Below, piece after piece: positions 4,239 through 61,100 of a stretch of DNA of 64,000 nucleotides. The position numbers and the translations under genes were made by a program. Source of the DNA: an uncultured virus (IMG/VR IMGVR_UViG_3300021090_000018). Taxonomy: Duplodnaviria > Heunggongvirae > Uroviricota > Caudoviricetes. The notes beneath the pieces were generated by a model. It did not search any database, was not told the origin of the DNA, and saw only the letters and a program-made list of their open reading frames with translations. Numbering within the stretch: the first letter of the stretch is position 1; every line of letters begins with the position of its first letter. The stretch lies in the IMG/VR virus record IMGVR_UViG_3300021090_000018; one strand, given 5' to 3'.

Positions 4239-4239
4239 G

Positions 4240-7830: not shown

Positions 7831-7859
7831 GCACTCCTTGTACGTCAGAAGTTGACCGA

Positions 7860-8780: not shown

Positions 8781-8794
8781 AGTCGCCTCCTTGA

Positions 8795-9061: not shown

Positions 9062-9201
9062 CGAGCCACCAACTTGCACCGATGGGCATAGCCCTGATCG
9101 TGGCCATAGGTGGCTCCACACGCCCTGCAACGATAGACCTTCTTGGGTAAGGCGCGTCCACAGGCCTCCATCTGCTGCCGCGTCACCATAACCAGTTTCA
9201 T
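9058..9201 (-). CDS. Small zinc-finger-like protein, 47 aa
   Basis: Manual translation ...YRCRACGATYGHDQGYAHRC...; ATGA overlaps at both ends. Confidence 0.45.
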   Translation of the reverse strand: MKLVMVTRQQMEACGRALPKKVYRCRACGATYGHDQGYAHRCKLVAR

Positions 9202-9638: not shown

Positions 9639-9776
9639 GATGTCCCTCCTAGAATCCCGCTAGTCTGCGACAGAGCCCCTTGGCCTGGGATCGCCACTTC
9701 CGCTGCTTCTTCGTCAATACCGTGCCTTTATCCACGAACGGGAGCGCTCCTGACAGCCATCTTGCGCAGGAGGCCG

Positions 9777-10214: not shown

Positions 10215-10233
10215 CACAGACCTCCTGGTTAGA

Positions 10234-11142
10234 CTATCGACCGATCCCCAATAACATCGAAGCTGGTACCGCAGCCGGTCCTCCACCACCCGCTGGCGCG
10301 GACACATCGAGCGCATACTGTCCAATGGGCTCCTGCCAGGCATTCTTCCCTGGTCCATTCGCCCACGACGTAAAACCGTTCCCCGCATCGGTGCTGCGTG
10401 TGAAGCGGCGCCCATGACCGCTCCTGTCGTAGAGATCATCCTGATTCCCCGCCGGGATATTTGCCCAGACCGCCTGGCGATAGGCACTGTCTACTAAGGT
10501 TTTGCTGCGTACCTGCTTCATCAAAAATGGGATCGGCAACGCGCCTCGAAAGATCCAGATATTGTCCATTGATCCGTCGATGCCTTCGTTGTTGATATAC
10601 GGCACTGCGCCGAAATTGAGTGTGGAGCTGGCCGCATAGGTAAAAGCAGCCGGCATGTCACGCGAGATCACAATCGAGGTATCGGGCAAGTCTGGGTAGA
10701 AGAGTTGCTCGTAATCGTTCGTCGCCCGCTTCCGCCGCCGAAGCGCCATGTAGTATGGACGACCGATCACGGGCAGGGCGGAGGCGTGGTAGGTGTCCCC
10801 CCCTTGTGAGCCGATCGCAAAATGCAGATCAACGGCGGTAACTCCTGCAAAGGCCGTAATGTACTCATTCCCGCCGGTGAACCCAATGTCCTGTGCAAAG
10901 GCAAAGTACGTTTGATACTGCGTATTGGTGCGGACGTGATGATACACGCGCCAGACGATACTGAACTCCTCGCCTGGCCACGCCCGTGCATTCGCGGCGG
11001 GTCGGCGAATGCGATCCAGGGAGCCACTATCATTGGCAAAGCGAATGGAGGCCAGCGAGGGTTTGACGATCAGCGGCACCGTGACCAGGGCGGCCAGTCC
11101 ACCCAAGCCTGCTTTTAGGATGCTGCGTCTCGACCAGTCCAT
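10234..11142 (-). CDS. Tat-signal LamG/ConA-like accessory protein
   Basis: SRRSILK twin-arginine motif; GIDGSMDNIWIF and DLYDRSGHGR LamG-like motifs; C-terminal LLGIGR. Confidence 0.65.
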   Translation of the reverse strand: MDWSRRSILKAGLGGLAALVTVPLIVKPSLASIRFANDSGSLDRIRRPAANARAWPGEEFSIVWRVYHHVRTNTQYQTYFAFAQDIGFTGGNEYITAFAGVTAVDLHFAIGSQGGDTYHASALPVIGRPYYMALRRRKRATNDYEQLFYPDLPDTSIVISRDMPAAFTYAASSTLNFGAVPYINNEGIDGSMDNIWIFRGALPIPFLMKQVRSKTLVDSAYRQAVWANIPAGNQDDLYDRSGHGRRFTRSTDAGNGFTSWANGPGKNAWQEPIGQYALDVSAPAGGGGPAAVPASMLLGIGR

Positions 11143-11655
11143 TTAATTGACCTGTCGGTTATGTTCCCGTACGCTCAGGGTGGAGCCGGTCGCGGGAAAC
11201 GCTTGACTGCCGTTGTTCCAGATGATCGTCTTATAGAGCCCTGGCGGCACCGGCACGTCTCGACAAGTGAGGCGTTGCGCCGCCGTGGTTCCGAGGAGTT
11301 GAAAGCTGCAGGCAAAGCTATCCGCCACGGGACGATTCGTCGCATCACCATCCTCGTAGTTGGTGCCGTCCGCAGCTCTCACGAGGTAGAGATCCACGAG
11401 ACCATCGACGGTTGGCGCGCTCACAAAGTCCACGGTGAGAATCCAGTCACCGAGAAGGTTCGCCGCTGTCGCATCGGCCCCTTTGGCCGCGCTGATGGCC
11501 CGGCTGTTGGTGCCGAGCGCGTTCAGCTCGGTCGTCATAACGGCGGTGATCGTTTCGTAGGCGAGCTGCTTGATTGTGGCCGCGCTGGATACGCCTGGGA
11601 TGAGGGCGAGCGTGAGTGCGACGATGAGAACAAGTCGAGAGATCAAGGCGGGCAT
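11143..11655 (-). CDS. Exported beta-rich accessory protein
   Basis: Signal peptide MPALISRLVLIVALTLALIPGVSSA; GAGGAGG RBS. Confidence 0.65.
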   Translation of the reverse strand: MPALISRLVLIVALTLALIPGVSSAATIKQLAYETITAVMTTELNALGTNSRAISAAKGADATAANLLGDWILTVDFVSAPTVDGLVDLYLVRAADGTNYEDGDATNRPVADSFACSFQLLGTTAAQRLTCRDVPVPPGLYKTIIWNNGSQAFPATGSTLSVREHNRQVN

Positions 11656-11656
11656 G

Positions 11657-18380: not shown

Positions 18381-20003
18381 TTAGAAAAACTCCGCAAGAG
18401 ATCCAGCACGAAGTTTCACCATGACATTCAGAAATAGTGTTGGCTGCATATTGTTCATCGCCGCATTGCCGCCGGTGCTCTGTGAATTCGCATTGCTGTT
18501 ATTCGCGCCCGCCGACCACGAGATAATGCCGCTGGCGCTAGATGAGCTTGGGACATCGCTGTTGCCGAGCAGGAGATGTGCGTGTGCCAATTGCTCTGTT
18601 GCGCTTTCAGCGTGCGCTTCTTCCCCAATAGCCTCGCCAAGCACTCTCGAGGTGTAGGTATGCGTGATCGTCCAAACGGGCGAAGATTTCGCCGTATAGT
18701 CAATCGCGGTGCCGTTCTGTGCATTCGCCAAAGTTGAAGCGAGTTGAACCTTTGTCGCACTGGACCGAATCACATAGTAGGTCGTCGAGGTTGTCAGGCC
18801 CGTGATGGTGCCCGATGCCAGCGTAAACACGACCGGCATCCCGGTGATCCATTTGGTGTTGTTCGAAACTACAGTCAGGTCATTCGCGGTAATATCGACG
18901 TCCGCATCGACCCCCGACGCGACGACGGTTCCGGTGCCATAGCCAGCGAGGGCACGTCCCAACGTCTTGGGGAGCGTCAGCGCCTTATTGGCAGCAAAGT
19001 CGGCTGCAGCGCTTCCCCCGCGACCGCCAGCAACCGGCGCCCATTGATCCGTGACATTCGTCCAAATGAGTGTGTAGAGCGCAGATGTGTCGGCATTGGC
19101 TCGACCCGTTGCGCCGCTGGTGGCACTCCCAATGGACTTGTCGTCCATCAGGACCCAGGAGGTGTCGGCCACGGTCTTGAGCGACAACTTGACATCGCCG
19201 GTGGAAAATCCCACCGCGTCCACATACTGCTTGCTGGCAATGCCGAGCGCGTCGGTAGGATCAGCCCCCACCGTACCGGCGTTGATCGTGGGGGTGCCAG
19301 ACAGGGAGTAGGTCCCGGTGGCGATACCAGACAAGACCGGTGACGAGATCGCCGGAGCCGTGATTGTGGGCGTACCGGCCAAGGTGTACGTCCCGGTCGC
19401 CGATCCCGAGAAGACGGGCGACGAGATGGCTGGAGCCGTGATCGTGGGCGTACCCCCCAACGTATAGGTCCCTGTCACCGTACCGGAGAGTATCGGAGAG
19501 GCGACGGTCTTATTCGACAGCGATTCAGCCCCGGCCAGCGTGGCAAAATCCCCGTCAGATAGGGCGGTATTGAACTGCGCGACAGTCCCCGTCAGCGTGT
19601 TGTTGGCCAGATTGAACGTCTTGGTGGTGAAGGTTTCGGATCCGGCCAAGGTGGCCAGTGTCCCCGTCAGTGGGAGGGTGACGTTCGTGGTATTGGTGAC
19701 GGTCAGCGTCGTGGCGAAGGCGCCCGAAATGGCGAAGTTACCCGCCAGGCTGAGTGTGCCGGTCGTGACGGTGAGAGCGTTTGCTGAGCCGTTGACAATG
19801 ACGGGCTTGTTGGCATTGCCAGACAGGGACGGCAGCTTACTAAATCCCGTCGAGATCAGATCCAGCTCGGCTCTCATAGAGGCGGATGTCGCGGGAGATC
19901 CAGACGCGGGAAAACTTCCATGCGTGTAATAATCCACCCCGTAGACGCGTGACGCCGCCCCGAGAATCAAGATCGCAACCAGTGCTCCGTGCCAGCGCTT
20001 CAT
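18381..20003 (-). CDS. Tail fibre protein carrying an N-terminal signal peptide
   Basis: YYTHGSFP...SMRAELDLISTGFSKLP attachment-like N-domain; ASKQYVDA..FSTGDVK and NNMQPTLFLNVMVKL collar motifs; three 26-aa repeats. Confidence 0.75.
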   Translation of the reverse strand: MKRWHGALVAILILGAASRVYGVDYYTHGSFPASGSPATSASMRAELDLISTGFSKLPSLSGNANKPVIVNGSANALTVTTGTLSLAGNFAISGAFATTLTVTNTTNVTLPLTGTLATLAGSETFTTKTFNLANNTLTGTVAQFNTALSDGDFATLAGAESLSNKTVASPILSGTVTGTYTLGGTPTITAPAISSPVFSGSATGTYTLAGTPTITAPAISSPVLSGIATGTYSLSGTPTINAGTVGADPTDALGIASKQYVDAVGFSTGDVKLSLKTVADTSWVLMDDKSIGSATSGATGRANADTSALYTLIWTNVTDQWAPVAGGRGGSAAADFAANKALTLPKTLGRALAGYGTGTVVASGVDADVDITANDLTVVSNNTKWITGMPVVFTLASGTITGLTTSTTYYVIRSSATKVQLASTLANAQNGTAIDYTAKSSPVWTITHTYTSRVLGEAIGEEAHAESATEQLAHAHLLLGNSDVPSSSSASGIISWSAGANNSNANSQSTGGNAAMNNMQPTLFLNVMVKLRAGSLAEFF

Positions 20004-22105
20004 CGCAACAGCCTCCGTGGGATGAAGTGGGTGATCAGGGAATCCAGGTCGTAGGGATAGAGATAGTCTTCCGACGACCGGAAGGTGACCTCGATGTTTT
20101 CGCCGTCGCCGGTCAGGTCGATCTCACTGGGCGAGAGGAGATTGCCGTCCCAGACAAACGCATCCCAACTCACCTCGTCCCAATTGGCACTGCCGGAGAA
20201 ATTCCCGACGTAACTCCGTTGAGGCGGTTGCGCATACTCACTGCTGCCATAACCCAGGCGATAGGCGACCTGGAAGGCCGCGTAGAAGTTGCTGCTCATC
20301 TCGACCGAGCCCCCACGATAGCTCTTGATCAGCCGAGGCGATTGCATCGTGTTCCAGGCCAACGTCAGAATCGCGTCGAGGTTGTCCCCGTCGAACGAGG
20401 ACCCCCGATCGAGTTCATAGACGAAGCCCCCGGTGGATGCTCCGGCATAGGTGCGTTCCTCTCCAGAGGGCGTTTCAGCGTTCCAGACACAGAAGAATGG
20501 AATCGGGAACGTCATCGGCATCGAGCCCACGACTTTGCCGTTCACAATCGTCAGGTAGAGCGCGTTGCCGTTACTGAAGTAGAGCCGGTACTGACTCTTC
20601 GTCTTGTGGGTGCAGGAGCAGAGGAGTAGTCCTCGGTGTTCGGTGATGAAGTTCTGAATGTTGAACGTCAGAGTGCCGGGCGCAAACCCGCTGAGTTCCG
20701 CTGCCGCTCGCACGCTCTGGACTCCGCTATCGTCCAAGCTGTACGCATCGGCCATATTCTGTTGGCTGTAGTGGACGCCCCCGGTTTCGTTGTTGAAGTC
20801 GACCGGCTTCCAGGGCGTCGTCCCTCCCGCTGCCGTGCCATAGACAATCCGCTTGGAGTTCCGGCCATCGACCAGCAACGTCGCGTTCCCTTGCGCACCA
20901 GGGAGCGAGAGATAGCCCGTGATTTCATCCCCAATGGCAATTTCCGCTGCTCCCGCCGTGGCATCGAAGACATACGGACGGCCAGGCCCAGAGACCATCG
21001 ACGAACTCCCAATGGCGAACCACAGGTGATCGCTATGGACCTTGACGTGAATGGGAATATCCGACGTGGCCTTGGTCTCGATCGGCACGAACACCGTCCC
21101 GTCGAACTCAAACCCACGATTCGCGTTGTCACAGCCGTAGATCCGCTTGGTCTGAAGTTGTCCCCCAAAGTTCTTGATGTCGAATTCAAACCGTCCACCA
21201 GGGAGCATGGGAATCGCGGTCTGGACCCCACTCACTTGAATCGAGATGGCCCCGATCGTTGCGGCACCGGCGGTATAGTTTCCTGGGGCCGGCGCGTCGA
21301 TGATGAACCGGCCGTAGGCATCGCCCGCCGCGAAGCTCCCGCCTTCGTGCACCGCCCGACGAATCAGCGCGGTATTCCCGCCTTGGGTCAGCGTGTCGCC
21401 GTCCACTGGCACGAGCGATCCATGATTGCCGCCTGTAAACCGCACCTCCAGGAACATCGTGACCGCCGTCCACCCAGAGGCAGAGGCTTCATGCAACACA
21501 ACCGCGGTGGCTCCGGCGTTATCCCGAAAGGCGAAGAGCTTGTGCGTACCTGAGACATTGAGCGAGGTGACCCCACGCACCGGCCCCGAACCAGGCACCG
21601 CCGCAATTAAGGCGCGATAGACATCAGCCGCGAGGTTCAGATACTGGGCGTTCAGCAGCTGGGAGAGGACGACCGTGCGCATCACCGCCGTCCCGATCGT
21701 CGTCGCGCCCACCTTCACCACTTCCACATCGGTAAAGGTGCCGACGAGAATCGTGAGCACGAGATAGTCGGCCCCTAAGGCGATGATCTTCCCTGTCGCG
21801 CCAGAGGAATTCCCCGTGAGCGTTTGCCCGAGCGTCGGGATGTTCGTGAAGCTCGCAATCTGCACCAGGCCATAGACCGCATCAGATGGACGGGCTCGCC
21901 CATCCAGGCGTTCATGTCCACCGATCCTGCGATACCCACCACCAGGCGTGGCCTTGGCTTCATAGTTCCGGGCATACCGCGCAATGCCTCGCCCTGGCTT
22001 GAGTTGCAGCGTCGGCGTCATCTCGTCCAAGCCGCCGATGAGGACGACTTGATCCGTCTTCACGTCGGGCATCTGCTCAATCGTATTGTCGAGTTGACGA
22101 CTCAT
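20000..22105 (-). CDS. Tail nozzle/stabilization protein
   Basis: ~700 aa beta-rich, GGLD...GGYRRIGG N-terminus, follows adaptor gene. Confidence 0.65.
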   Translation of the reverse strand: MSRQLDNTIEQMPDVKTDQVVLIGGLDEMTPTLQLKPGRGIARYARNYEAKATPGGGYRRIGGHERLDGRARPSDAVYGLVQIASFTNIPTLGQTLTGNSSGATGKIIALGADYLVLTILVGTFTDVEVVKVGATTIGTAVMRTVVLSQLLNAQYLNLAADVYRALIAAVPGSGPVRGVTSLNVSGTHKLFAFRDNAGATAVVLHEASASGWTAVTMFLEVRFTGGNHGSLVPVDGDTLTQGGNTALIRRAVHEGGSFAAGDAYGRFIIDAPAPGNYTAGAATIGAISIQVSGVQTAIPMLPGGRFEFDIKNFGGQLQTKRIYGCDNANRGFEFDGTVFVPIETKATSDIPIHVKVHSDHLWFAIGSSSMVSGPGRPYVFDATAGAAEIAIGDEITGYLSLPGAQGNATLLVDGRNSKRIVYGTAAGGTTPWKPVDFNNETGGVHYSQQNMADAYSLDDSGVQSVRAAAELSGFAPGTLTFNIQNFITEHRGLLLCSCTHKTKSQYRLYFSNGNALYLTIVNGKVVGSMPMTFPIPFFCVWNAETPSGEERTYAGASTGGFVYELDRGSSFDGDNLDAILTLAWNTMQSPRLIKSYRGGSVEMSSNFYAAFQVAYRLGYGSSEYAQPPQRSYVGNFSGSANWDEVSWDAFVWDGNLLSPSEIDLTGDGENIEVTFRSSEDYLYPYDLDSLITHFIPRRLLR

Positions 22106-22788
22106 CGAAACGCTCCCACCAAGGCCGCCGAGGGCGTTTGATCGTTCACGAGATTGCGATATTCCTCTTTCCACGCCTTCTGCGCCCTGGCATAGACTTC
22201 CCGTGCAGCATAAAAACCGCCGTAGTCCAGCATGGCTTTGTGCACAATAATGATGTCGTCATGGCCGAGCGGCATGGCCGGCACGTTTGCATCAGCGGTG
22301 AGGAGTACGGCGTTTCTGTAGTAGTCCATGGAGGCTTCAAGTCCGGAGATCGGCGAGGGCCCAACGATCAGCGCATCATCCGGTCCAGTCGTCACTTCGA
22401 TGGGACGTGAGGAGACGGTGCGATTGGCCCCGAACAACCAGAGATTGCGGAAGCTCTCGTAGCTGCGGTAGTCGAGGTGTTGCTCGGAGACGAGTCCGGG
22501 AATGGTGAAGAAGGTGCGGCCGTTCTCGGGGATCCAGTCCCGAAAGGTGCCGGCCGCGATGGCACAGGCCGTCGGCAGATAACTGGACGTGCCGGCGATC
22601 AAGGGCCATGTGGCCGTCAACCGCATGAACTTCCAATCGTCGCGCTTGGCCTGGATCGAGATCCAGGCGGACGCATACCAGTTGACCATCCGCTTGAGTT
22701 GGCCGGTCTGCCCGACCACGGTCGTCAAACTGTTCGCGTTCACCCCGCACTCGTCGCAAAACCTGATGACCCCATCCAAGAACGTCAC
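22102..22788 (-). CDS. Head-tail adaptor protein
   Basis: GTG after GGAGG; TFLDGV...AWISIQ...W.FM and P.P motifs; synteny. Confidence 0.6.
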   Translation of the reverse strand: MTFLDGVIRFCDECGVNANSLTTVVGQTGQLKRMVNWYASAWISIQAKRDDWKFMRLTATWPLIAGTSSYLPTACAIAAGTFRDWIPENGRTFFTIPGLVSEQHLDYRSYESFRNLWLFGANRTVSSRPIEVTTGPDDALIVGPSPISGLEASMDYYRNAVLLTADANVPAMPLGHDDIIIVHKAMLDYGGFYAAREVYARAQKAWKEEYRNLVNDQTPSAALVGAFR

Positions 22789-25704: not shown

Positions 25705-26586
25705 TCAGCGGCCTTTGTAGGCGTCGAGCATTTCGCTTTCTTCGGTGGACACGCTGGCCCCTCCTCTCGATCCCGCACTTCTCGGGGTGACGGCGGCTGC
25801 CGCACGCGAGGGGCGAGTCGGAGTGGTTGGCGTGACCGGTGGTTTCGATTTCGTGGCTGTGAAGGTGTTGAACTTGTCGATCGATCCCTTCACGTCGGAC
25901 ACTTTCCAGGAGTTGTCGATCTTGTTGGCGTACTCTTGCGGCTGGGACTTGAGCCAGTCTCGATAGGCGGGACTGTTGACCGTCTCCAGCCAGCCAGGGA
26001 CTAGTTCATCCATCACGGCGACGGTGGTCTCTTGCTTTACGGTGCTGATGATCGCCGGCATCTCGGCTTTGAATCGCTCACTCATCTTGGCGTCGACATC
26101 GATGGGCGCGGTACCCTGCACCCCGTCCAGTGCGCGATTGAGCCCGGTCACGGTCATGTCGAGGAGATCGGGGAACTGTTCCCCCAATTCCTTGAAGTGC
26201 TCTTTGGTGACCACCAACTTGGACCCGGCAGGCGTCTTCTCTTGGATGGTTTTGAGCGCGGCCTCAAAGGTGCCCATCTTGCTGCCCATGCCACTGACGT
26301 TCCGATGTAAGGCGTCCTTCAGTGCGCCCACTTCCTTCGAAGCGTTCTGCAGCTCCGTCAGTTGGGCTTCGGTGATCTGGACGTACTTCGGTTCGTCCTC
26401 CACCACGGGTTCGGTCTCGGTAAGATCGGTGGCAGCGGTCTCCGTCGTGGTGGTAGCGTCGGGAGTCGGCGTGGTGACAGGGGCCGGTTGGCCTGCGTAG
26501 CCTGCTACGAGGTCTTGATCGGTGGACCCGTCATCGTCGGGCGCGAGGGTCGTGACTTCTGGCTCTGTGTCGATCGCAGTCGTCAT
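25705..26586 (-). CDS. Capsid scaffolding protein
   Basis: Acidic N-terminus, coiled coil, immediately upstream of capsid gene. Confidence 0.7.
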   Translation of the reverse strand: MTTAIDTEPEVTTLAPDDDGSTDQDLVAGYAGQPAPVTTPTPDATTTTETAATDLTETEPVVEDEPKYVQITEAQLTELQNASKEVGALKDALHRNVSGMGSKMGTFEAALKTIQEKTPAGSKLVVTKEHFKELGEQFPDLLDMTVTGLNRALDGVQGTAPIDVDAKMSERFKAEMPAIISTVKQETTVAVMDELVPGWLETVNSPAYRDWLKSQPQEYANKIDNSWKVSDVKGSIDKFNTFTATKSKPPVTPTTPTRPSRAAAAVTPRSAGSRGGASVSTEESEMLDAYKGR

Positions 26587-35866: not shown

Positions 35867-36994
35867 TTATGTATCAATAGGTTCTGATGTATGATCCGGT
35901 CTGCCGTACAGACCCGAGGCGGTGTTCCGTGGCACGCCAAGCTTCTCGATGGCCGAGCGCAGTCGGCTCACGTCCCGTTTCAGATACCGATCCATCGCTT
36001 TCCAGCTTTTCCACCGACCGAGATCCTTCAGATCCTTGACCTCAACCCCAGCCTGTTGGAGCCGACTGGCAAAGGTGTGTCGCAGCGTGTGATAAGTCTT
36101 GCCGTCCTTGCGGGAGAGCACAATGCCAGCCGCGGCACAGGCCTTTTTGAACACATGATTATACCAGGTCTTGGGATGGAGATGTTTAAGCGGATCACTC
36201 CGATGCGGAAAGACCCACTGTGATTCACCAGCCTTCACTTTGAGCCGGGCGAAAATCTCCGCCGCTCGCGTGTTGATCAAAAAGATTTCCGGTGCCCCCC
36301 CTTTGGGATGGTGCAGTTTGCCCAGGCCTCGATCGAGATCAAGATCCGCCCAGGCGAGCGAGAACTGTTCGTCTTGTCGCAGTCCGGTGAGGATGGCCAA
36401 CGTGGGGTAGTCGGCTTGATCCCCGAGGGCGTGCGCCATCGCCGCTTCTTCCACTTCCGTGAATTCCACCTCTGGAGCCACGGCCTCTTTGAACTTCAAC
36501 CCTCGGCAAGGATTACGATCAAGCTGACCCTTGATCACGGCCGATTGAAAGAGATGGTGCAACCAGGCGACGTAGCGGTTGACGGTCGAGTGCGCAATGG
36601 GGCCTCGATAGTGCCCATGGGTGAGAAGATACGTTCTCGCGTGATCGATGCGGTCGAGGAGCGGGTCCGTCCAGTCCGCCGAGCCAATGCGCGTTTTCCA
36701 GAAGGCCGCGTAGGCCAGTTCAATGCTGTGCGATTTCTTGTTGGTGGTCTGAGCCAGATACTGGTCAATCATCTGGGTGACGGTGCGGGTGTGCCCAGTC
36801 CGACCAGGAAACGGGCGCCCTTCGCGCACATCCCGGCGCCGATCGTCGTACCAATCTCGCGCCTCCTGCTTGCGGGTAAACCCACTCCATTTGTAGGCGG
36901 AGCCCGATCGATAGAGCCGGACCCCGTATTGGGCGGTGCCATCCGCGAGGCGATAGAGGAAGAGCCCGCGATCCTGGCGATGCTGGCGGGCCAT
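35867..36994 (-). CDS. int: Tyrosine integrase
   Basis: TGLRQDE (R), PKGG (K), HTLRH, LGRW, MDRY (Y). Confidence 0.92.
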   Translation of the reverse strand: MARQHRQDRGLFLYRLADGTAQYGVRLYRSGSAYKWSGFTRKQEARDWYDDRRRDVREGRPFPGRTGHTRTVTQMIDQYLAQTTNKKSHSIELAYAAFWKTRIGSADWTDPLLDRIDHARTYLLTHGHYRGPIAHSTVNRYVAWLHHLFQSAVIKGQLDRNPCRGLKFKEAVAPEVEFTEVEEAAMAHALGDQADYPTLAILTGLRQDEQFSLAWADLDLDRGLGKLHHPKGGAPEIFLINTRAAEIFARLKVKAGESQWVFPHRSDPLKHLHPKTWYNHVFKKACAAAGIVLSRKDGKTYHTLRHTFASRLQQAGVEVKDLKDLGRWKSWKAMDRYLKRDVSRLRSAIEKLGVPRNTASGLYGRPDHTSEPIDT

Positions 36995-37057
36995 CTGCTA
37001 TTTTCGGCGCGGGAACCTTGGCCTTCAGGCCGAGGAGGAGCGCCGCTCCTTTCTTGA

Positions 37058-37086
37058 TTGACTGCCAACTGCTAGGATACTATGCT
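37058..37086 (+). promoter_or_regulatory. sigma70-like promoter of tnpB (near-leaderless)
   Basis: TTGACT-17-TATGCT, ATG 5 nt after the -10. Confidence 0.6.
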
Positions 37087-37091
37087 GTGAC

Positions 37092-38276
37092 ATGAAGCGC
37101 CGCTGGACATTCCGAGCCTATCCGACTCCCGCGCAATCCGAGCACTTGGCGCAAACATTTGGCTGTTGCCGACTGGTCTATAACGGCATGTTGGCCGCCA
37201 GAACCGCTGCCTTCCAGCGGGGGGAACGATTGACCTATACCGGAACTAGTGCCCGGTTGACCCAACTGAAGAAAGATCCTGAACTGGCGTTTCTCAATGA
37301 GGTCTCGTACTGCCCGATGCAACAATCCCTCCGGCATCTGCAGACCGCCTTTGAGAACTTTTTCGCCAAGCGCAGTGCCTACCCCACCTTCAAGAAGAAG
37401 GGCCGGGTAAGGGACTGCGCCGAATACACTCGTAAGGCGTTGACCTTCGACATCACCACCCAACGCCTGACGCTCGCCAAGCTCGGGGTACTGGCGCTGC
37501 GGATCAGTCGCCGTGTCGATGTGGGCCCCAGTACTGTGACCGTCTCGCGCCACCCGTCTGGTCGCTACTACGTGTCGATGGTCGTTGACATCAAGGCCCC
37601 ACCGGCACGGGCGAAGACCGGACTGTCTGTTGGTATTGACTTCGGGGTCAGCCGCCTGACTACGTTGTCGAATGGCGAGACGATCCCGAATCCCACACAC
37701 CTGTTTCGTCGCACCGCTTTGCTGGTCCGTGCCCAGCGGCGCTTGGCCAGAAAGACGAAGGGCTCCAACCGCCGTGCTGAACAAGCCCGTCGTGTGGCGA
37801 GGCTGCATGAGAAGATTGCCGATGCGCGACGCGACAGCCTGCACAAACTGAGCACGATGCTGGCGCGACGGTTCGATACGATCTATGTCGAAGACTTGCA
37901 TCTCCGTGGCCTGGTTCAAAACCACAACCTGGCCCGTTCGCTCTCGGATGCCTCGATCGGGACCGCGATCCGCATGATCGAAGCCAAGGCCGAGACGGTC
38001 GTCAAGATCGACCGATTCTTTCCAAGCAGTAAAACCTGTTCCTCGTGTGGACACCTGTTGGACGCACTCCCGCTGAGCGTCCGGCAATGGACCTGTCCTC
38101 AGTGCGGCACCGAGCATGATCGAGACGTGAACGCGGCTCGCAATATCCTGGCGGTCGGACAGACCGTGACTGCGCGTGGAGGCGGTGTAAGAGCTTCCCG
38201 GACTACGGTTCGGAAAGCCAGTCGCCGACGAAACGTGAACCACTCTAGGATCAAGCATGCACATGTTTCCTCTTAG
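37092..38276 (+). CDS. tnpB: TnpB RNA-guided endonuclease
   Basis: FRAYPT...FGCCRLVYN HTH; RuvC GIDFG, VEDL, DRDVNAARNI; CxxC/CxxC zinc ribbon. Confidence 0.93.
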   Translation: MKRRWTFRAYPTPAQSEHLAQTFGCCRLVYNGMLAARTAAFQRGERLTYTGTSARLTQLKKDPELAFLNEVSYCPMQQSLRHLQTAFENFFAKRSAYPTFKKKGRVRDCAEYTRKALTFDITTQRLTLAKLGVLALRISRRVDVGPSTVTVSRHPSGRYYVSMVVDIKAPPARAKTGLSVGIDFGVSRLTTLSNGETIPNPTHLFRRTALLVRAQRRLARKTKGSNRRAEQARRVARLHEKIADARRDSLHKLSTMLARRFDTIYVEDLHLRGLVQNHNLARSLSDASIGTAIRMIEAKAETVVKIDRFFPSSKTCSSCGHLLDALPLSVRQWTCPQCGTEHDRDVNAARNILAVGQTVTARGGGVRASRTTVRKASRRRNVNHSRIKHAHVSS

Positions 38277-38326
38277 GAATCTCCGGCCTTTAGGCCTGAG
38301 AGGATGTCAACGTGATTCACCGTGAT
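38160..38326 (+). ncRNA. Putative omega/reRNA of TnpB (boundaries approximate; guide ~38311-38326)
   Basis: Established TnpB architecture: reRNA overlaps the tnpB 3' end and RE, and the guide comes from the flank after TCAA. Confidence 0.5.
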
Positions 38327-38574
38327 TCAGTGTGGGCACGCTTCACCGGGAAGCCCCGCTTGTCGAGCACCCCGTCGGCCTCGCGATAGTGCTCCAGGTA
38401 GAAGGCCATCGAGAGTTCCACGAGGCGCGAGAGCGACAGGAACCGATCATCCTTCGCCACAATCTCTTCCCCTTCCGCTTTCAAGCTCGGCAAGATCGTG
38501 GCGCGGATGCGGCCATGGAGCGCTCGGTCTTCCCCCGGTCGGCCCAGCTTCAGATGTCTCGCAGGTTGTGCCAT
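38317..38574 (-). CDS. Hypothetical RHH-like protein, lysogeny operon
   Basis: LHGRIR...LSLSRLVELSM; coupled to upstream gene. Confidence 0.5.
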   Translation of the reverse strand: MAQPARHLKLGRPGEDRALHGRIRATILPSLKAEGEEIVAKDDRFLSLSRLVELSMAFYLEHYREADGVLDKRGFPVKRAHTESR

Positions 38575-38575
38575 G

Positions 38576-39088
38576 TTACTTCCGAGCCTCCAGACCCTTG
38601 CCCATTCGAAATTGATCAATGGACGCACCGATCACGAGCGGATCCCAGCTGTCATTGATGAGCTGCTGATAGGTCGCGGGCTGTGCGGCCAGCCATTGAC
38701 GATACCGAGTGTCGTCAACCACCGCCTTCCAATCCGGATGGGTTCGCGTGAGTTGCCCCACCGCTTCTTGTTGCAGAACCCTTGTGCGCTCCGCTTCAAT
38801 GTCACCCTGACTCCGCAGCGCAGCCCGTTGGTACTCCATCTGCCGTTGATGCGTAGCCGCGTCTCGTTCCCGCTGAGCCTGATAGGCCCGTTCGTCCTGC
38901 TCCCGCTGAAAGTAGGCTTGCTGCTCCATCATCTGTTGCATGATGAGCCCCGACTGCATGGCGGCCAACGAATCGCCCATGGCCTTTCCCGCACCAGAAA
39001 TGCCACCAGCCAGACCGAGGTCCCCCGCGCTCGCAAGGCCAGGCATCCCGCAAACCAATACGATACTTATCCATAAAGATCGCATCAT
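38576..39088 (-). CDS. Exported chimeric protein (ejection-protein-like plus scaffold-like); candidate superinfection exclusion factor
   Basis: GGAGG RBS; signal peptide ...LVCGMPGLASA; ungapped similarity to the 4238 gene and to the scaffold. Confidence 0.65.
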   Translation of the reverse strand: MMRSLWISIVLVCGMPGLASAGDLGLAGGISGAGKAMGDSLAAMQSGLIMQQMMEQQAYFQREQDERAYQAQRERDAATHQRQMEYQRAALRSQGDIEAERTRVLQQEAVGQLTRTHPDWKAVVDDTRYRQWLAAQPATYQQLINDSWDPLVIGASIDQFRMGKGLEARK

Positions 39089-39191
39089 GTGCCTCCTTTA
39101 TGTCTTGCGGTTTGCCCAACAGTGTTCACAAGTACACCGCATTTCGATGACACTTTCATGTTGCCCGCCCACTAGGGCCACAAATCCACCA

Positions 39192-39398
39192 TTAGGCTTT
39201 TTTTTGACGGCCTGACGGTCGCATGGGCGGATCAACTAGATTCTCACTAGCCACTAAACCTAGAGCACAACGTAGTAAGTATCTCGCCTGGTCGGATTCC
39301 TTCCGATCATATTTGCTCGCGGCATCCCGCAAGGCCCGCTTTAATTCGTCGTCAGCACGAATCCGAATAAACTCGCTTTTCTTCTCCATCTTGTCCAT
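39192..39398 (-). CDS. Ribbon-helix-helix repressor (cI position)
   Basis: FIRIRADDELKRALRDAA...SDQARYLL; divergent from early operon. Confidence 0.7.
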   Translation of the reverse strand: MDKMEKKSEFIRIRADDELKRALRDAASKYDRKESDQARYLLRCALGLVASENLVDPPMRPSGRQKKA

Positions 39399-39405
39399 GT
39401 CCAAA

Positions 39406-39435
39406 AGCCTATAGGTTCCGCCGGGTTGCATGCAA
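39406..39435 (-). promoter_or_regulatory. Putative leftward (lysogeny) promoter, leaderless
   Basis: TTGCAT-18-TAGGCT, 7 nt before ATG 39398. Confidence 0.45.
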
Positions 39436-39479
39436 GGTTAAAAATGTGCCACTTGGTTCCATTCCGTGTCATTTTGTGC

Positions 39480-39508
39480 TTGACAGGCTTTTCCGCTCGG
39501 TGTATATA
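39480..39508 (+). promoter_or_regulatory. Rightward early promoter
   Basis: TTGACA-17-TATATA. Confidence 0.65.
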
Positions 39509-39518
39509 TCGTCACATC

Positions 39519-39692
39519 ATGGAACGAAACGGAACAGCCAAGCACCGAGTACGCATCGCCGCGGAGTTAGAGCATGCCCTCATCGCCAAAATCGACGAGG
39601 AACGAAAAGGGCGATGCAGCCGCGCTGCCATTGTCCGCATGGCGCTCCTGGATCGCTATCAACCGCGGCGGACAACGAAGAAGCGGGCCTGA
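39519..39692 (+). CDS. Ribbon-helix-helix protein (Cro position)
   Basis: VRIAAELEHALIAKIDEER..CSRAAIVRMAL CopG/Arc-like. Confidence 0.7.
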   Translation: MERNGTAKHRVRIAAELEHALIAKIDEERKGRCSRAAIVRMALLDRYQPRRTTKKRA

Positions 39693-39719
39693 TGCCTCAC
39701 GCGAAGGGAGTGTCCCCTA

Positions 39720-39989
39720 ATGTCCAGTGAAAATCCTAGCCCATCTTCCGAGGGGGTCGATCCCCGCCAAGCCGCGCTGGACGCCGCACGGGCGCAATGG
39801 CTCACGATCACAGAAGCCGCCTATGTGCTCCGCACGGACAAGCACACCATCCTCAACGCGATCCATCAGGGGCATGTGAAGCTGTTCGCCGTCGGGAAGG
39901 TGTTCCGGGTCCATGTGGATGCACTGGTCGAGAGCCAGAAAGTCATGGGGGAGTGGAAGCCGGTTCGGTTGAAATCCGTGCAGCGATAA
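39720..39989 (+). CDS. Excisionase-like HTH protein
   Basis: LTITEAAYVL....TILNAIHQG...VGKVFRV. Confidence 0.7.
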   Translation: MSSENPSPSSEGVDPRQAALDAARAQWLTITEAAYVLRTDKHTILNAIHQGHVKLFAVGKVFRVHVDALVESQKVMGEWKPVRLKSVQR

Positions 39990-40012
39990 CACGTTTCATG
40001 GGGGGCAAGCCT

Positions 40013-40243
40013 GTGAATGAATCCACGAGAAATCTCCTCGTCTCCGCCTTACATAACCACCTCGATCCCGAGGCCTGGATCCTCGTCTACATCGATGGGG
40101 GGGGCGTGTGCTCATTCACCAACATCTTGACGACCGAACCCGAGAACAAACACCTGGCGATCGCCATGCTCGACGCGATGATCAAGAGCCTGCGTGACAA
40201 TCAGCCAGGGATGATGGCGCGACTCGATCCATCGAGCAATTAA
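40013..40243 (+). CDS. Hypothetical protein
   Basis: GTG start, colinear. Confidence 0.45.
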   Translation: MNESTRNLLVSALHNHLDPEAWILVYIDGGGVCSFTNILTTEPENKHLAIAMLDAMIKSLRDNQPGMMARLDPSSN

Positions 40244-40257
40244 CCGGAGAGGGCAGC

Positions 40258-40959
40258 ATGACGACGCGCAAATGGGCCACCTGGATGATCGTGCTGGATC
40301 TGTGCCTGCTACTGGGAGGGATCGGCGCGACGGTGGTGGTGGCGCACGCCGGAGCGTTCTACGTGACGGGCAGTCTCGGGGCGGCCCATTTTCTCCGCAC
40401 GATCCCAGACGGGACCTGGATCCAGGAGGGCCTGCCGCACACGACCGACCTGACGAGCCTCGCGTGGCGCACGGGCGCGGGGTATCGGCTGAACGAGTCC
40501 TGGAGCGTGCAGGCACACTATCTGAATTTTGGGACTGCCGCGATCAATACCCTGGCGGTGCGGGACGAACAATACAACCCGCATGCCCATCGGTGCCACA
40601 CCGCCTGTGACGAGGCGCGGCCGTTCCACTCCCACGACCTGATGGAGGGCGTGGAAGTGTCCATCTCCCGTCATTGGGCACTAGGTCCCGTCAATCCGTT
40701 TCTCCGGGCGGGCGGGGCGCTCCTCTACCATCGGCTCACAGTGCAATGGAGCGATATTAACCATCCATCGGCCCAGCAAACCATGCACGGATGGATCCCG
40801 ACAGCCCTCGTGGGTGGCGGAGTCTGTGCTGGGTGGCTCTGTGCGGAGACGACCTATTACCGTGGGTTCGGGGGCGGCGAGGATTGGAGCGCTGGTCTGC
40901 CGATTGCGAAACAATCCGTGATGACGCTCCTGAGCGTCAACGTGCCATTGAGTTTTTAG
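40258..40959 (+). CDS. Outer-membrane beta-barrel protein (OmpA/Ail-Lom-like)
   Basis: Signal peptide (AHA), FYVTGSLG, GAGYRLNESWSVQAHY, PFLRAG, terminal Phe. Confidence 0.7.
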   Translation: MTTRKWATWMIVLDLCLLLGGIGATVVVAHAGAFYVTGSLGAAHFLRTIPDGTWIQEGLPHTTDLTSLAWRTGAGYRLNESWSVQAHYLNFGTAAINTLAVRDEQYNPHAHRCHTACDEARPFHSHDLMEGVEVSISRHWALGPVNPFLRAGGALLYHRLTVQWSDINHPSAQQTMHGWIPTALVGGGVCAGWLCAETTYYRGFGGGEDWSAGLPIAKQSVMTLLSVNVPLSF

Positions 40960-43570: not shown

Positions 43571-44137
43571 ATGAAACTTTGTGAATGCGGGTGCGGAGAG
43601 TTGGCACCGCTTGCGTTTCAAACGGATACACGTCGAGGTTTCGTGAAGGGACAACCGCAGCGTTTCATCGCCGGGCATCATGCTCGTGGAAGCAATAACC
43701 CTGCATGGAATGGTGGGCGCAGCTCTCATCATCAGGGATATGCGTTGGTGATGAAACCTGACCATCCACGCGCAAGCAGCAACGGATACGTTCTGGAGCA
43801 TATTCTCGTAGGAGAGCAGGCCCTCGGGCGATTCCTCCCACCGCAGGCCGTTGTCCATCATGTGAATGAGCAGCGTAGCGAAAACAGAAATTCCAACCTC
43901 GTGATCTGTGAAGACGACACATACCACAAATTACTCCATAAGCGCATGCGAGCCTTCCGCGCCACTGGTTCCGTACTCGGCGTGCAGTGCCTCTACTGCA
44001 AAGAATGGGGCATGCCAGGGACGAGTGACATATCAATCATCCAACGAAAAAGCGGAAAGACAGGACATTCCTATCACCGATCCTGCAACACCGCTGCGGC
44101 GAAATCATTCAGAGAAGCAGAAAGGACACCATCATGA
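43571..44137 (+). CDS. HNH endonuclease
   Basis: CECGCG N-terminus; EHIL...VHHVNE...N..NL...H. Confidence 0.8.
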   Translation: MKLCECGCGELAPLAFQTDTRRGFVKGQPQRFIAGHHARGSNNPAWNGGRSSHHQGYALVMKPDHPRASSNGYVLEHILVGEQALGRFLPPQAVVHHVNEQRSENRNSNLVICEDDTYHKLLHKRMRAFRATGSVLGVQCLYCKEWGMPGTSDISIIQRKSGKTGHSYHRSCNTAAAKSFREAERTPS

Positions 44138-45339
44138 GTCCATTCAACACCAAGTTTACGAGACTGACCGGCGACGTGGGCAACGTCTCTGGGCTCATGC
44201 GGCTCAAGCGCCTTGGAAAGATCAGGCTTGGGATCAAGAAAAAAAGCGCCAAGACTGGACAGGAATATCCGAGCGCGATCGACATGGATGGCCAGCCCAT
44301 TGATTACTTCGTCGTGCCGCCAGAAATCGTCGAGTTCACAGGGGAGAAGCCGAAAGTGCTTGACGCGATGTTTGTCTCGAACGACCCAGAGGAAGTGTAT
44401 CAAGAGAAGCTGGCAATGTATGGCAGCACGACTGGCCTGAAATGTCACGGAGACGGTCAGACGGCGCTGCGACGGAACGAGAGCGGCCAGTGGGAGCCGA
44501 TGAAATGTCCATGCCCATTTCTCAAGACAGATGCCAACCCCAAGGGCTCATGTACCGCACAGGGGCATCTGATGGTCGTCCTGCCCAAGGTGAGCATGTG
44601 GGGCTATTTTCAGATCACGACACATTCCCTCTACGCGAGGGCTGGCATTCTCTCCTCGCTGAAACAGTTGCAGCAGACTATTGGCCGCATTGCCTACATT
44701 CCGCTGAAACTCAGTCGGGCTCCGCAAGATATTGTGCATGATGGGAAAAGCAAGACGCATTTTATCGTCGGATTCGTCCCTGATCTCACGCTCCCGCAAA
44801 TCATCGAGCTCCGCACCAAGCCGGAACTCATGGTTTTGCCAGCACAGTATCAGATCGAGGCTCCTGTCGATTCCAACCCTGCCGACGATCCGGTCGACGT
44901 CGTGACGGAAGCGGAGACGGAGGACGGCATCGACGCGGAGCTGCTGGCCGATATGAGCGACAAGGAATTGGAGGACGTACAAGCCAAATTGCGCGAGCGG
45001 CAAGTGAAGCCGTCGGACGTTACGAAACCAGTGATAGGCCGGCATGGAGGATTGGAAGCGTCACCGAAGGCACCGGCTCCTTCACTGAAACCCAACGGCA
45101 CGGCGGTGCAGGAATCCCTTGAACTGCCGACGCCGACACGATTGGGGGATGGGCCGATTCCCGCTTCGCAATGGGCCGAAGTGGTCACGTTCATCGACGG
45201 CAATCTGGATCTCGGCACACTCAAACAGGATTGGAAGGCGGAACATAAGGTGGACAACGTGATTCGTTTGACCGAGGGAGGCAAGCAGAAGTTTCTCGAA
45301 TTCATGCGAGCGCAGGCGGGCGCGGGGTTTCCGTACTAA
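44134..45339 (+). CDS. Recombination protein (Gp3/recombination-directionality-factor-like)
   Basis: LGKIRLGIK, KCHGDG, CPC...C, FQITTHS; next to exonuclease. Confidence 0.6.
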   Translation: MSPFNTKFTRLTGDVGNVSGLMRLKRLGKIRLGIKKKSAKTGQEYPSAIDMDGQPIDYFVVPPEIVEFTGEKPKVLDAMFVSNDPEEVYQEKLAMYGSTTGLKCHGDGQTALRRNESGQWEPMKCPCPFLKTDANPKGSCTAQGHLMVVLPKVSMWGYFQITTHSLYARAGILSSLKQLQQTIGRIAYIPLKLSRAPQDIVHDGKSKTHFIVGFVPDLTLPQIIELRTKPELMVLPAQYQIEAPVDSNPADDPVDVVTEAETEDGIDAELLADMSDKELEDVQAKLRERQVKPSDVTKPVIGRHGGLEASPKAPAPSLKPNGTAVQESLELPTPTRLGDGPIPASQWAEVVTFIDGNLDLGTLKQDWKAEHKVDNVIRLTEGGKQKFLEFMRAQAGAGFPY

Positions 45340-58173: not shown

Positions 58174-61100
58174 TCAATGCCGCAAAGCAAGCTGTCGGTC
58201 GGATACCATCTTTGCTAGTCGATTCTTCTGCTCTCGCAACCGGTCAATCTGCACCCGTTTCTGTTCACCGGAGAGCACCCGAGACTGTTCAACCATCTTT
58301 ATTCTAGTATTTATCGAGGACTCCTCGCGCTTCACCCGCTCAATCATCGGATAGAGCGCGAGCTTCTCCCGTTCCTGCTCACGAATCGTCCGTGCACCTT
58401 CGAGATCACCACGTTTCAGCGCATCACGGTAACTGCCAAATGCTTGTTCAACCTCAAGCGCCTGGTCATAAAACTGTGTGAGGTACTTGCTCGATCCACT
58501 CGGCAACGTCTCCACGAAATTCCCGGCGAGGAACACGTCCTTCAGTGCCAGGTTCGGCCTAGTCCCACGATCCACCATCGGGCGAATGCCATAATCCAGG
58601 ACGGTCGTCCCCATCGTGCCCAGCCAACTAAAATACCCGCGTACCAATGCGTCCACCTGCACAGGCGAGAGACTGTCCCAGCGCCCCATTGCGAGCTGCG
58701 TTGGATCGGGGAGACCGAGCTGCCCCAGCATTCTGGCGATCTCACTCGTCCGCTCGGTGTAACGGTCCTGCTTCCGTAACCGTTCCATGCCTGGACGTTC
58801 GATCGGTTGGCCCGTAAACGCATCTTTATTCGCGTAGAGATCCATCAGCGGTTTCAGCAGTTGCGGCGTTGGGTTCATGCTCAATTGATTCGAGACGACG
58901 GCCGCCAGCCGCTCACCAAAGAATTTGCCCGTCATTTCTTGATCGATCAGATATTCCACGCTCCGTTCAGCGATGGTGCCAATCGCGCCGATTTCAAACG
59001 GCTTGGGAATGCGGAATGCCACCCCCGCCACCTTAAACCACCAGTTATTTTCTCTGTCATACGGTTGCCGCTTTTTCCAATCATCATCGTCTTTATAGGC
59101 CAGCATCAAGGCAATCGACGCGAGCGCGACCGTCGCCAAGGTGGTACCCATTCGACGGTAATCTTCCTTCGTGGCCCTGCCGAGCTTATAGAGGCCTTGC
59201 AATCTGGCTCCTGTGAACGGGACCACTTGCGTCAGAATCCTGACAGCGGCCCACTTGCCAGACAAACTAAAGTCCATGAGATCGCGGGCCCAGAACGTCG
59301 CCTCCTGGTGACTCATGCCTTTACTCAGCAGACGCTGATAGAGTGCCGCACGGTTCACCTGTTCCCCGCGATCGCCAAACTCCTGATAGGCCTCGAAGGC
59401 CGGTTGAATCCGCTGCTTCCAGAACTTCGTGATGGCGCCGGCATCGCTGAGAATCGAGTCAGGATCAACCCCTTGTTCGATGAGTCGCCTGGTGCGGTCG
59501 GCATTGTTCCCGTCCAACATGGTCCCGAAACGCATCATGCCCCCACCAGCGAGGAGCTGTGCACGGGTTTCGGATTCGAGTCTCGTCCCCTTGATGCCTT
59601 CGCGGATATTCTCAAGAGGGTTATAGGAGAGGTCAGCGGTCCCGATCGCCTGAATGGAATCGCGGATCAAGTTGCGAATCTTGTAGGCCGGGTTCACCGT
59701 CACGGCAAAGGAAAAGTAGCGCTTCATCGCTTGGAACGGCTTCGCAATCGCGCCAAGCCCAGCATAGTGGAGGGCGGCGATGGCATCCAGGAGGGCGGGA
59801 TCGGTGACACGGAAGGTGACCGGCTTCCCCTGATCCATATAATGAACCAGATCCTTCTCCGTGGAACCGGACGGCACTTCCTGCGCCACGCCGGCCATGA
59901 CGGCCGCATTCAGCGTTTCCTTCGCCGCTCGATTCTTCGCTGAGGCGGTGATGAGATGCGACCAGTTCTGCAGGAGATTAGCCAGGAGATCATCGTTCAG
60001 ATGTTCCGTGCCCCCTTCGAGCTTCTTCCAGGCATATTGATTGACGAGGCCCGGCTTGATGCCAAACCCCGGCGCGACCCCTTCCTCATGCAACCGATAG
60101 AACGGCACGTAAGGCTGGTTCTTGTAGAGATCACGCACCTCCGGGCTAATCAACCCAGAGTCCACGCCGATCTTCACCATCGCATCGTTCCAACTATTCA
60201 GCTCTCGGAGTGCGGTCAGATATGCCGCTTCCCGTGAGGCACCATTCTTCATGGTCCCGCGGTTCAGGGTCTTGAGCGCGGCAATGTCCTGCTCGCGGTA
60301 GAGGTTTTCGAGTCCGATCGCCTTGAGACGGTCTGCGCGTTGCGCCGCCACCCATTCCATGAAACGGTCTTGCTCGCCATGGAGAGCGGAGAGCACTTTC
60401 GAGAACCCATTCATGCCATCCGCTTCTCGATAATCGACGCGGTAGGCCCCATCGGAATCGACGTAGGGCTTGCCGTACAGCAACAGGGCTTCCAGGGTTC
60501 CGTCACCCGCCTTCGTCATGCGTGAGAGAATGTAGGCCTTTTTGCTGTAGTCCAAGATCGGCGCATACTGATCGAAGAGGCCTTGCTGCAGCGTCTGCTT
60601 CCAGGTCTGTTTGAACGAGTCCAGCTTTTCATGCCAGGTCTTTGGCGTGCCGTGCACGTGTTGCAATGCGGTCTGCTGTGTTTCAGTCAGTGCACCGAGA
60701 TGCGCGTGTCGAGCCGAATAGGGGGCAGGCGTCTTGTTCTGGATACCGGGGAACTCGGGCGAGCGGAGTTCGTTGTAGGTCAGGCCGGCTTGACGTCGTC
60801 GCTCAAACACTGGCCCGCCCGGCTGCGGGCCGGAATCGTCAGGGTTTTCGCCTTCATTCTTCAGGAAGTCTCCAAATTGATCTTCTCCTGATGGGTGATA
60901 TCCCATAAATCTCGCCCATTTCTCGTTCTTCTTAAATGTATACTCCACTGCCCGCCACATGGTTTTAGCCCCGTCACGAAACCACGCCTTCTCACTGACA
61001 ACAGGTCTCATGTCACCATTCGATACGATCATCCAGTGAGGCCTAGAAGGGTCTTTTGCTACCTCCCAATAGCTGTCTCTCAGGTGAATAGATAGCCGTG

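Follow-up and report, generated by a model that had tools for sequence, protein, structure and literature searches.

A probably exported protein from a phage integrase block has two helical modules in common with virion-module proteins and may act in superinfection exclusion

Phage P1 carries Sim, a processed and exported prophage protein that blocks infection after adsorption, and we know of no modular relation between Sim and virion proteins. Here we describe a gene of an uncultured member of the Caudoviricetes (IMG/VR record IMGVR_UViG_3300021090_000018), located on the minus strand of a 64,000-nucleotide stretch of DNA (the window, meaning that whole stretch at its full length). Its product, the target protein, is probably exported and resembles two proteins of the phage's virion module over short segments at either end. 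An earlier note, made from the sequence alone, had described the product as a chimera put together from the phage's own scaffold and ejection protein and as a candidate decoy for superinfection exclusion. We find instead that the target belongs to a diverse family, here named the NC family, and that its architecture appears to have been inherited. The function that we place first, as a tentative choice, is interference in the periplasm with incoming related phages through a shared N-terminal helix.

One established way to achieve exclusion is to interfere with the conduits formed by ejection proteins, as P22 SieA does (PMC10883804). Like the target, SieA comes from a temperate phage and is proposed to act in the envelope (PMC10883804); the target differs in that it is predicted to be a rod, soluble or peripheral, in the periplasm and has modules in common with virion-module proteins, and no sequence relation between the two was found. 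In the HXS system, a periplasmic effector, HxsA, is proposed to stop phage DNA entry (PMC13128918), which resembles our proposal for the target. HxsA requires radical-SAM maturation, has a peptidoglycan-binding domain and HxS repeats, and is proposed to make electrostatic contact with incoming DNA (PMC13128918), whereas the target has none of these features and no partner genes. Tai, carried by prophages and satellites, is likewise a mobile-element defence that disturbs a structural assembly step of a phage; there, tail assembly is blocked during phage reproduction in the cell and tailless particles are released (PMC11364771), whereas the target is predicted to be exported. A literature search of incomplete coverage found no described exclusion protein built of virion-protein modules.

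The NC family and its architecture

The target gene, the ribosome-binding site in front of it and the segments of its product are listed below, all on the minus strand.

38576-39088 (-): target gene, an open reading frame (ORF) of 170 aa, probably 169 aa counted from the ATG at 39085
39092-39098 (-): ribosome-binding site AAGGAGG upstream of the target, read from the sequence
39026-39088 (-): predicted signal peptide MMRSLWISIVLVCGMPGLASA, residues 1-21, with the predicted cut before GD
38876-39025 (-): N module, residues 22-71, made up of the Gly-rich motif GDLGLAGGISGAGKAMG and the first part of the long helix
38594-38740 (-): C module, residues 117-165, forming a small domain of four helices, HPDW...YRQWLAAQP..Y...SWDP...SIDQF

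Searching 1.8 billion representatives with the target returned 165 matches at E ≤ 1e-3, and homologues of the minus-strand product were found at E-values from 1.8e-35 to 3.3e-15. The target is a real gene and a member of a conserved, unannotated protein family. Its second ATG (39085) lies 6 nt from AAGGAGG and is also the start of the database copy P0004. An overlapping plus-strand ORF (38498-39076) was rejected as a shadow frame; the homologues belong to the minus-strand product. Neither the target protein nor its modules are covered by any Pfam, NCBIfam, PADLOC or annotated PHROG family.

NC proteins share a four-part architecture, in which a Sec-type signal peptide is followed by a Gly-rich motif where the mature protein begins (the N-motif), a helix of ~90 residues and a four-helix domain of ~50 residues at the C-terminus (the C-domain). 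In the target, the alignments place G-D-L-x-x-A-G-A-x-S-G-x-G directly after the signal peptide, followed by the long helix, which would measure ~13 nm if straight, and then the C-terminal HP-x-W ... W-L-x-x-Q-P ... S-I-D-x-F domain. Residues D23, L24, G28, G32, G34 and Q45 are invariant in a 9-row alignment of the target family. An AlphaFold2 model of the target, built on the NC family alignment of 26 members (pLDDT 87.5), has one helix at residues 28-116 and four short helices at residues 120-169. Searching the PDB with this model using Foldseek gave no matches at E ≤ 0.001, and BFVD likewise gave none at that threshold; the highest BFVD rows, none of which passed it, are ~290-aa podovirus proteins, uncharacterised apart from one with the label "capsid assembly protein". 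A wide structure search (VIA-align) returned only generic coiled coils over residues 25-106 (Z ≤ 7.2) and left the C-domain alone effectively uncovered. Two profiles (A2 and A3) found nothing significant among PDB sequences.

The first 21 residues of the target are laid out like a Sec signal, with a basic residue, a hydrophobic core and the site ASA|GD, and in the NC family alignment GDL stands immediately after the A-x-A site. A hydrophobic core and a small-x-small site occur in 25 of the 26 aligned members; signal peptides were read from the sequence and with this crude rule of our own, rather than with a dedicated predictor. The target protein is probably exported, in agreement with the earlier note. 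Its sole cysteine, C13, follows V-L-V, which is no lipobox as read from the sequence. Looking for the marks of a spanin, we found neither a lipobox nor a retained N-terminal membrane anchor in the mature protein, again by reading the sequence without a predictor.

Similarity to two virion-module proteins

The two proteins of the window that resemble the target are encoded on the same strand.

25705-26586 (-): scaffold-position protein, 293 aa, directly upstream of the major head protein; C-domain at ~25870-25998; phrog_13678
3249-4238 (-): N-motif protein, 329 aa, all-helical, just upstream of a giant polyvalent virion protein

Residues 118-160 of the target align without gaps to the translation of 25870-25998, and our recount of the identities, 17 of 43, agrees exactly with the earlier one. 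The match is significant by BLASTP (31% identity over 70 aa, E = 2e-10) and by hhalign between the target family and the scaffold-position family (98.0%, E = 3.1e-13). Its best ungapped score of 100 compares with a shuffle mean of 26.5 (sd 4.0), none of 300 shuffles reaching 100, and the scaffold-position protein is the top C-terminal match of the target among the 170 other window ORFs of at least 100 aa (runner-up, 47). Both proteins match phrog_13678, a family of no known function, the target at E = 3.7e-7 over residues 77-169. On these sequence comparisons, we regard the C-terminal match as homology, and as solid. Like the target, the ~290-aa scaffold-position family has the homologous helical domain of ~50 residues together with ~25 residues of the preceding helix; unlike that family, the target starts with a signal peptide and has neither the acidic N-terminal half nor the conserved C-terminal tail. 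It is 170 rather than ~290 aa long, and its gene is part of the integrase block instead of standing between those for the portal and the major head protein.

In the window, the gene after the scaffold-position protein encodes the major head protein (phrog_1357). Members of the ~290-aa family take this position in podovirus-like phages; in loci L003 and L012 and in Roseobacter phage CRP-235 (gp40), the portal gene is on one side and the major head gene on the other. "Scaffold" is a well-founded positional label at all four loci, taken from position only; some structural look-alikes in BFVD are labelled "capsid assembly protein" or "scaffolding protein".

At the other end, residues 26-73 of the target align without gaps to residues 6-53 of the 3249-4238 protein, with 15 of 48 identities, also exact on recount in the register first reported. 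This match is weaker than the C-terminal one, but in profile comparisons it stands above the controls. With hhalign, the 9-sequence target family and the 9-sequence 3249-4238 family matched at 90.5% (E = 1.4e-6) over 48 ungapped columns, with a score of 52.3 as against 13.2-15.3 for reversed profiles and 19.7 for the best of 60 column shuffles; with the 26-sequence target family, the match was at 65.9% (E = 5.7e-5). BLASTP between the two proteins gave E = 4e-4 with an extension that contains a 13-aa gap, and single-sequence phmmer gave a non-significant E of 8.8. The ungapped score of 57 compares with a mean of 30.2 (sd 4.0) for 300 shuffles, none of which attained it, and the 3249-4238 protein is the top N-terminal match of the target in the window, the runner-up (37) being a Q/E/R-rich coiled coil. 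Past the first ~50 residues there is no similarity to the 3249-4238 family, as hhalign stops at column 51 of 349 and BLASTP gives no further significant segment. Taken at the level of sequence, the N-terminal similarity is probably real. The 3249-4238 protein itself has a database copy (P0161) and eight homologues, no Pfam match and a single weak PHROG match (phrog_9654, function unknown; E = 0.005), and the AlphaFold2 model of its family is all helical and of low confidence (pLDDT 59.2). The N-motif stands at the very start of helical proteins that come from phages or mobile elements, the 3249-4238 protein among them.

The earlier proposal takes these two similarities as the record of a recent fusion, in which the N-terminus of the phage's own ejection protein and a segment of its own scaffold were joined into a truncated mimic that poisons the channel of homologous phages. 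Both similarities are real or probably real, each is the best within the window, the protein is probably exported and its gene lies on the integrase side, all of which speak for this version. The family tells against it on both "own" and "recent". Searches with phmmer returned two main kinds of relative, namely exported proteins of ~150-260 aa that have all parts of the architecture (22 of the 143 carriers of the C-domain, as sorted with a crude rule of our own) and C-domain-only proteins of ~255-335 aa (87 of the 143), matched at their own residues ~150-260; the remaining carriers comprise 4 stand-alone domains and 30 others. Against the target C-domain, the window's scaffold-position protein scores 25.7 bits, whereas most other scaffold-like proteins score ~30-47 and NC members ~50-67. 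Among 10 N-motif proteins, the 3249-4238 protein is the least similar to the target, with 9 of 32 identities as against 15 of 32 for the best (P0166). In a tree of the 143 C-domains (67 columns; 75 of 140 forks open, hence poorly resolved and read for nearest neighbours only), the rows nearest to the target are P0019, P0005, P0013, P0015 and P0022; the scaffold-position protein of the window, by contrast, has P0008 as its neighbour. Because the architecture is common to a diverse family and the phage's own two proteins are among the least similar carriers of each module, the target does not appear to be a chimera of the phage's own proteins, an origin that we consider very improbable; the comparisons indicate that the NC architecture is old and inherited, not put together in the present phage.

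The NC family is sparse. Of 401 genomes sampled from the phylum, 8 have any match to a family profile at E ≤ 0.001, as do 9 of 371 from the family of genome G001, and those genomes hold only two exported proteins bearing the N-motif. In a cluster look-up, 10 relatives all lay on short metagenome contigs, and none had an informative name (2 of 15 entries were listed, both as "hypothetical protein"). Scans for the target family found one true locus among genomes (L001), C-domain-only loci among metagenomes and none in IMG/VR, where a scan with alignment A4 gave only scaffold-like proteins with the C-domain, at 7 loci. A second genome locus, L002, was rejected as a spurious match of 21 residues. 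Among the INPHARED phages, the only match to the target was gp40 of Roseobacter phage CRP-235 (E = 8e-3), and the scaffold-position protein (P0003) had no match; P0063 and P0125, as queries, had none in the PLSDB plasmids.

Two giant open frames, at 1-3225 (-) and 58174-63999 (-), leave the window at opposite ends on the same strand. Jointly they carry polyvalent-protein domains (LPD1, LPD5, LPD38 and InPase) and match PHROG families of the endolysin, DarB-like and virion RNA polymerase kinds; should the ~65.6-kb contig represent a phage genome that is circularly permuted, both frames could belong to a single protein of >3000 aa. Between 20000 and 32513 (-), the portal and adaptor match models of phage SU10 (SU10_adaptor, E = 1.7e-8; SU10_portal, weak), and a 724-aa protein at 20000-22174 (-) has an amidase-like C-terminal region (phrog_5107). 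The virion module is thus podovirus-like, in a phage for whose target gene the nearest homologues are in Nitrospira assemblies. In each of two DNA runs (X1 and X2), a minor contig has three additional nucleotides (AGA) after position 32466, close to where the portal gene begins; this is a variant among strains of the source community.

Bacterial carriers of the C-domain and mobile-element contexts

Bacterial proteins also carry the C-domain. Among 35 matches scanned against Pfam, four combine it with Trypsin_2 (P0040, P0052, P0058 and P0121); it is joined to Sel1 repeats in P0050 and to TPR in P0111 and P0121, one of these two also having Adhesin_E. In P0103, two C-domains come after a cytoplasmic DnaJ domain and a membrane segment, and P0052 unites a signal peptide, the N-motif, a coil, Trypsin_2 and two C-domains in a single chain. 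Within the Nitrospirota, the C-domain occurs in a chromosomal trypsin-like protein with housekeeping-looking neighbours (genome G280), in exported proteins (G193 and G179) and in scaffold-position proteins beside capsid-like genes (G391 and G070). Judged by these matches, the C-domain is not specific to scaffolds, and because it is found in exported as well as capsid-assembly proteins, a general module for self-association or partner binding fits better than a scaffold-specific one.

Two bacterial loci show family members in full context. In a Nitrospira assembly (L001), an NC member of 214 aa is divergent from an HTH_3 gene; ~1.3 kb away, beside a small terminase, lies P0170, a 285-aa protein that begins MGMLQMAGVVSGGGK and aligns at 87.6% to the 3249-4238 family and at 63.1% to the target family. 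On a Nitrospirota chromosome (L032), a 227-aa protein with a signal peptide, the N-motif and a coil has a different C-terminus; its gene is divergent from a serine recombinase and stands in an operon with an exported Sel1-Trypsin_2 protein encoded two genes upstream. After it come a small terminase and a 542-aa N-motif protein that begins MGLLALAGMVSGAG, with a DnaB-type helicase nearby. Counting the window, an NC member occurs together with an N-motif protein in all three elements read, and near a regulator or recombinase in all three.

The L032 element itself (G290:C1:2450000-2469900, about 2400-13700) is compact, has no visible capsid genes and looks like a satellite, and it is trailed by a DUF262-like gene, as read by eye. 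The N-motif proteins at L001:3762-5261 (-) and L032:11447-13694 (-) adjoin small-terminase genes, and their relative in the window adjoins the giant polyvalent protein.

These contexts bear on a second, equally tentative account of the function, in which the target is a generic periplasmic accessory protein, an envelope tether or adaptor in lysogenic conversion that alters the physiology of the envelope and has no specific anti-phage role. The N-motif would then be membrane-associating and the C-domain would serve for oligomers or partners, alongside trypsin-like (HtrA-like) proteases of the host, and the likeness to virion proteins would be reuse of two small helical modules. The fusions of the C-domain with Trypsin_2, Sel1, TPR and DnaJ plus a membrane segment speak for such a role, as do the combination in P0052, the family-like gene of L032, two genes downstream of the exported Sel1-Trypsin_2 protein, and the chromosomal trypsin-C-domain protein of G280 among housekeeping-looking genes. 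It leaves the pairing of NC member and N-motif protein in three of three mobile elements unexplained, however; all three full-context cases lie in phage or mobile-element DNA, not in the core genome, and no trypsin-like protease was found among the window ORFs scanned.

A third account takes the two modules for binding partners, in a Rosetta-stone reading. The C-domain of the scaffold-position protein would bind the N-motif of the internal protein and load it into procapsids, and the exported protein, with both modules in one chain, would polymerise head-to-tail in the periplasm. Both modules stand in one chain across the NC family, with a protease between them in P0052, and in the window they lie on two proteins of one morphogenesis module. 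Against this, the 3249-4238 family was matched in none of five other phage records with a C-domain scaffold, an empty answer that shows little; overall, we think this arrangement improbable. A complex prediction that combined residues 96-170 of the target family, which contain the C-domain, with the first 75 residues of the 3249-4238 family scored 0.09 as against a mark of 0.32, with no controls, and counts neither for nor against any of these accounts.

In the window, the target is preceded by a 79-aa ORF and a 103-nt spacer and followed by an 85-aa ORF, a TnpB insertion on the opposite strand and an integrase, in minus-strand order.

39192-39431 (-): 79-aa ORF, upstream of the target on the same strand, called the repressor in the earlier note
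38317-38574 (-): 85-aa ORF, its ATG one base past the TAA stop of the target (translational coupling)
36995-38311 (+): IS200/IS605-type insertion of 1317 nt with TnpB (TnpB ORF at 37092-38276)
35867-36994 (-): tyrosine integrase, last gene of the leftward operon; phrog_1 (E = 3.9e-40), Phage_integrase

The place of the target behind the 79-aa ORF on the same strand was correctly given; the identity of that ORF as a repressor is a lead. All its named nearest ESM Atlas clusters are CopG, Arc and other ribbon-helix-helix families (scores 0.91-0.93), and nothing significant was found in Pfam, NCBIfam or PDB sequences; it is probably a ribbon-helix-helix regulator, as suggested by the protein language model only. 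A second small ORF, divergent from it, has a weak RHH_4 match (E = 0.12). The 85-aa ORF has no match in Pfam, NCBIfam, PADLOC or PDB sequences. The TnpB ORF carries OrfB_IS605, Cas12f1-like_TNB and HTH_OrfB_IS605 domains (phrog_506). Because a contig of run X4, from a relative ~90-95% alike, joins 36994 directly to 38312 and skips the 1317 nt, the TnpB element is an insertion, and the block of target, 85-aa ORF and integrase was ancestrally contiguous. The element sits exactly between the 85-aa ORF and the start codon of the integrase and may uncouple the integrase from the upstream operon.

Since the target lies in a tight leftward block with the integrase, it is an accessory gene of the integration and immunity side, not of the virion module. 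Such a place is typical for a lysogenic-conversion or exclusion gene, and "lysogeny operon" is a reasonable reading of the gene order. This setting also bears on a function in the lytic cycle, for example as a spanin-like or lysis-timing periplasmic coiled-coil protein. A periplasmic coiled-coil architecture would suit that function, and none of the window ORFs scanned was recognised as a holin or spanin. The gene, however, stands in the integrase-side block, far from the virion genes that bear amidase and transglycosylase domains, it is translationally coupled to an ORF that ancestrally abutted the integrase, and its product, as read from the sequence, has no lipobox or membrane anchor after the signal peptide; we therefore hold a lytic function to be very unlikely.

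A promoter and terminator scan of 36900-40300 gave counts at shuffle level and no usable promoter upstream of the target. Two DNA runs contain the region in a single contig and may be where this DNA comes from. In one metatranscriptome library, 19 contigs were all at least 99% alike to the window; two of them (38736-39010 and 38995-39265), identical to the window, lie across the target and together cover 38736-39265, and others lie on TnpB, the rightward genes and some structural bins. These contigs are consistent with transcription of the target, and DNA carry-over is possible. A scan of the window found no tRNA, hence no clue to an attachment site; the window is without host DNA and looks like a phage genome rather than an integrated prophage.

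Among the products of the rightward genes are an HTH_17 protein, an HNH nuclease, a methylase and a Gp3-like recombination directionality factor. The directionality-factor domain belongs to a 401-aa protein at 44134-45339 (+) (E = 1.1e-33) and is present despite the tyrosine type of the integrase. A 233-aa ORF of the rightward operon, at 40258-40959 (+), has a hydrophobic N-terminus and a weak OMP_b-brl match (E = 8.7e-4, below the Pfam cut-off), and is a second possible envelope-directed accessory gene.

Candidate function of the target protein

Interference in the periplasm with incoming related phages is preferred because of the gene position, the predicted export and the link with N-motif proteins in mobile elements. 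In outline, the target protein would be exported, cleaved and retained in the periplasm as a rod, where it would display at its N-terminus the same Gly-rich helix as the internal virion proteins of incoming related phages would after their ejection. It could then co-assemble with the ejected proteins, or compete for their site in the envelope, and so disturb the conduit for DNA delivery, with exclusion after adsorption as the outcome. The C-domain would here act as a general self-association or partner-binding module and not as a scaffold decoy. In its broadest form, that NC-type exported proteins protect the carrier cell by mimicry, poisoning the trans-envelope DNA conduit with the attacker's own parts, the proposal is rather doubtful.

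A number of observations weigh against periplasmic interference. The phage's own two proteins appear to be the least similar relatives of the target, and the gene therefore would not be tuned to self. The role of the 3249-4238 protein as an ejection protein is a guess from its position only. Because the N-terminal similarity is short and lies within a Gly-rich, Q/E/R-rich helix, its 48 residues could reflect convergence on a glycine-zipper-like helix, and the phmmer result given above is not significant. The C-domain, for its part, is common among the exported protease and repeat proteins of bacteria, which would fit a generic role, and its phage counterpart is in scaffold position, scaffolds not being expected in the periplasm. 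The pairing of modules is not general either: locus L048 has a protein of the 3249-4238 type and no NC member within 10 kb, and in all five records of related phages that have a C-domain scaffold, this scaffold was the only match to the profile of the target family, the lack of 3249-4238 matches in these same records pointing the same way with as little force as before. By sequence, the target belongs to no described defence or exclusion family in PADLOC, Pfam or NCBIfam; neither it nor three homologues matched a PADLOC model, and the target matched no Pfam family and gave one sub-threshold NCBIfam match, to NF002617 (E = 0.069, 13.3 bits as against a cut-off of 220). The RNA contigs, finally, are silent on strand, level and lysogeny, and cover structural genes as well. 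We consider a generic envelope role tied to periplasmic proteases about as likely as exclusion.

Whichever function applies, the comparisons define two small unannotated modules, a Gly-rich N-terminal helix and a helical domain of ~50 residues, that connect scaffold-position proteins, internal proteins of the virion module and exported protease and repeat proteins of bacteria. If the exclusion reading is true, its specificity would be readable from sequence, because the protein would have a module in common with its target, and the N-motif and the scaffold-type C-domain would be assembly modules common to the capsid interior and the periplasm. The modules also offer a handle on uncultured phages, the nearest homologues of the target gene being in Nitrospira assemblies.

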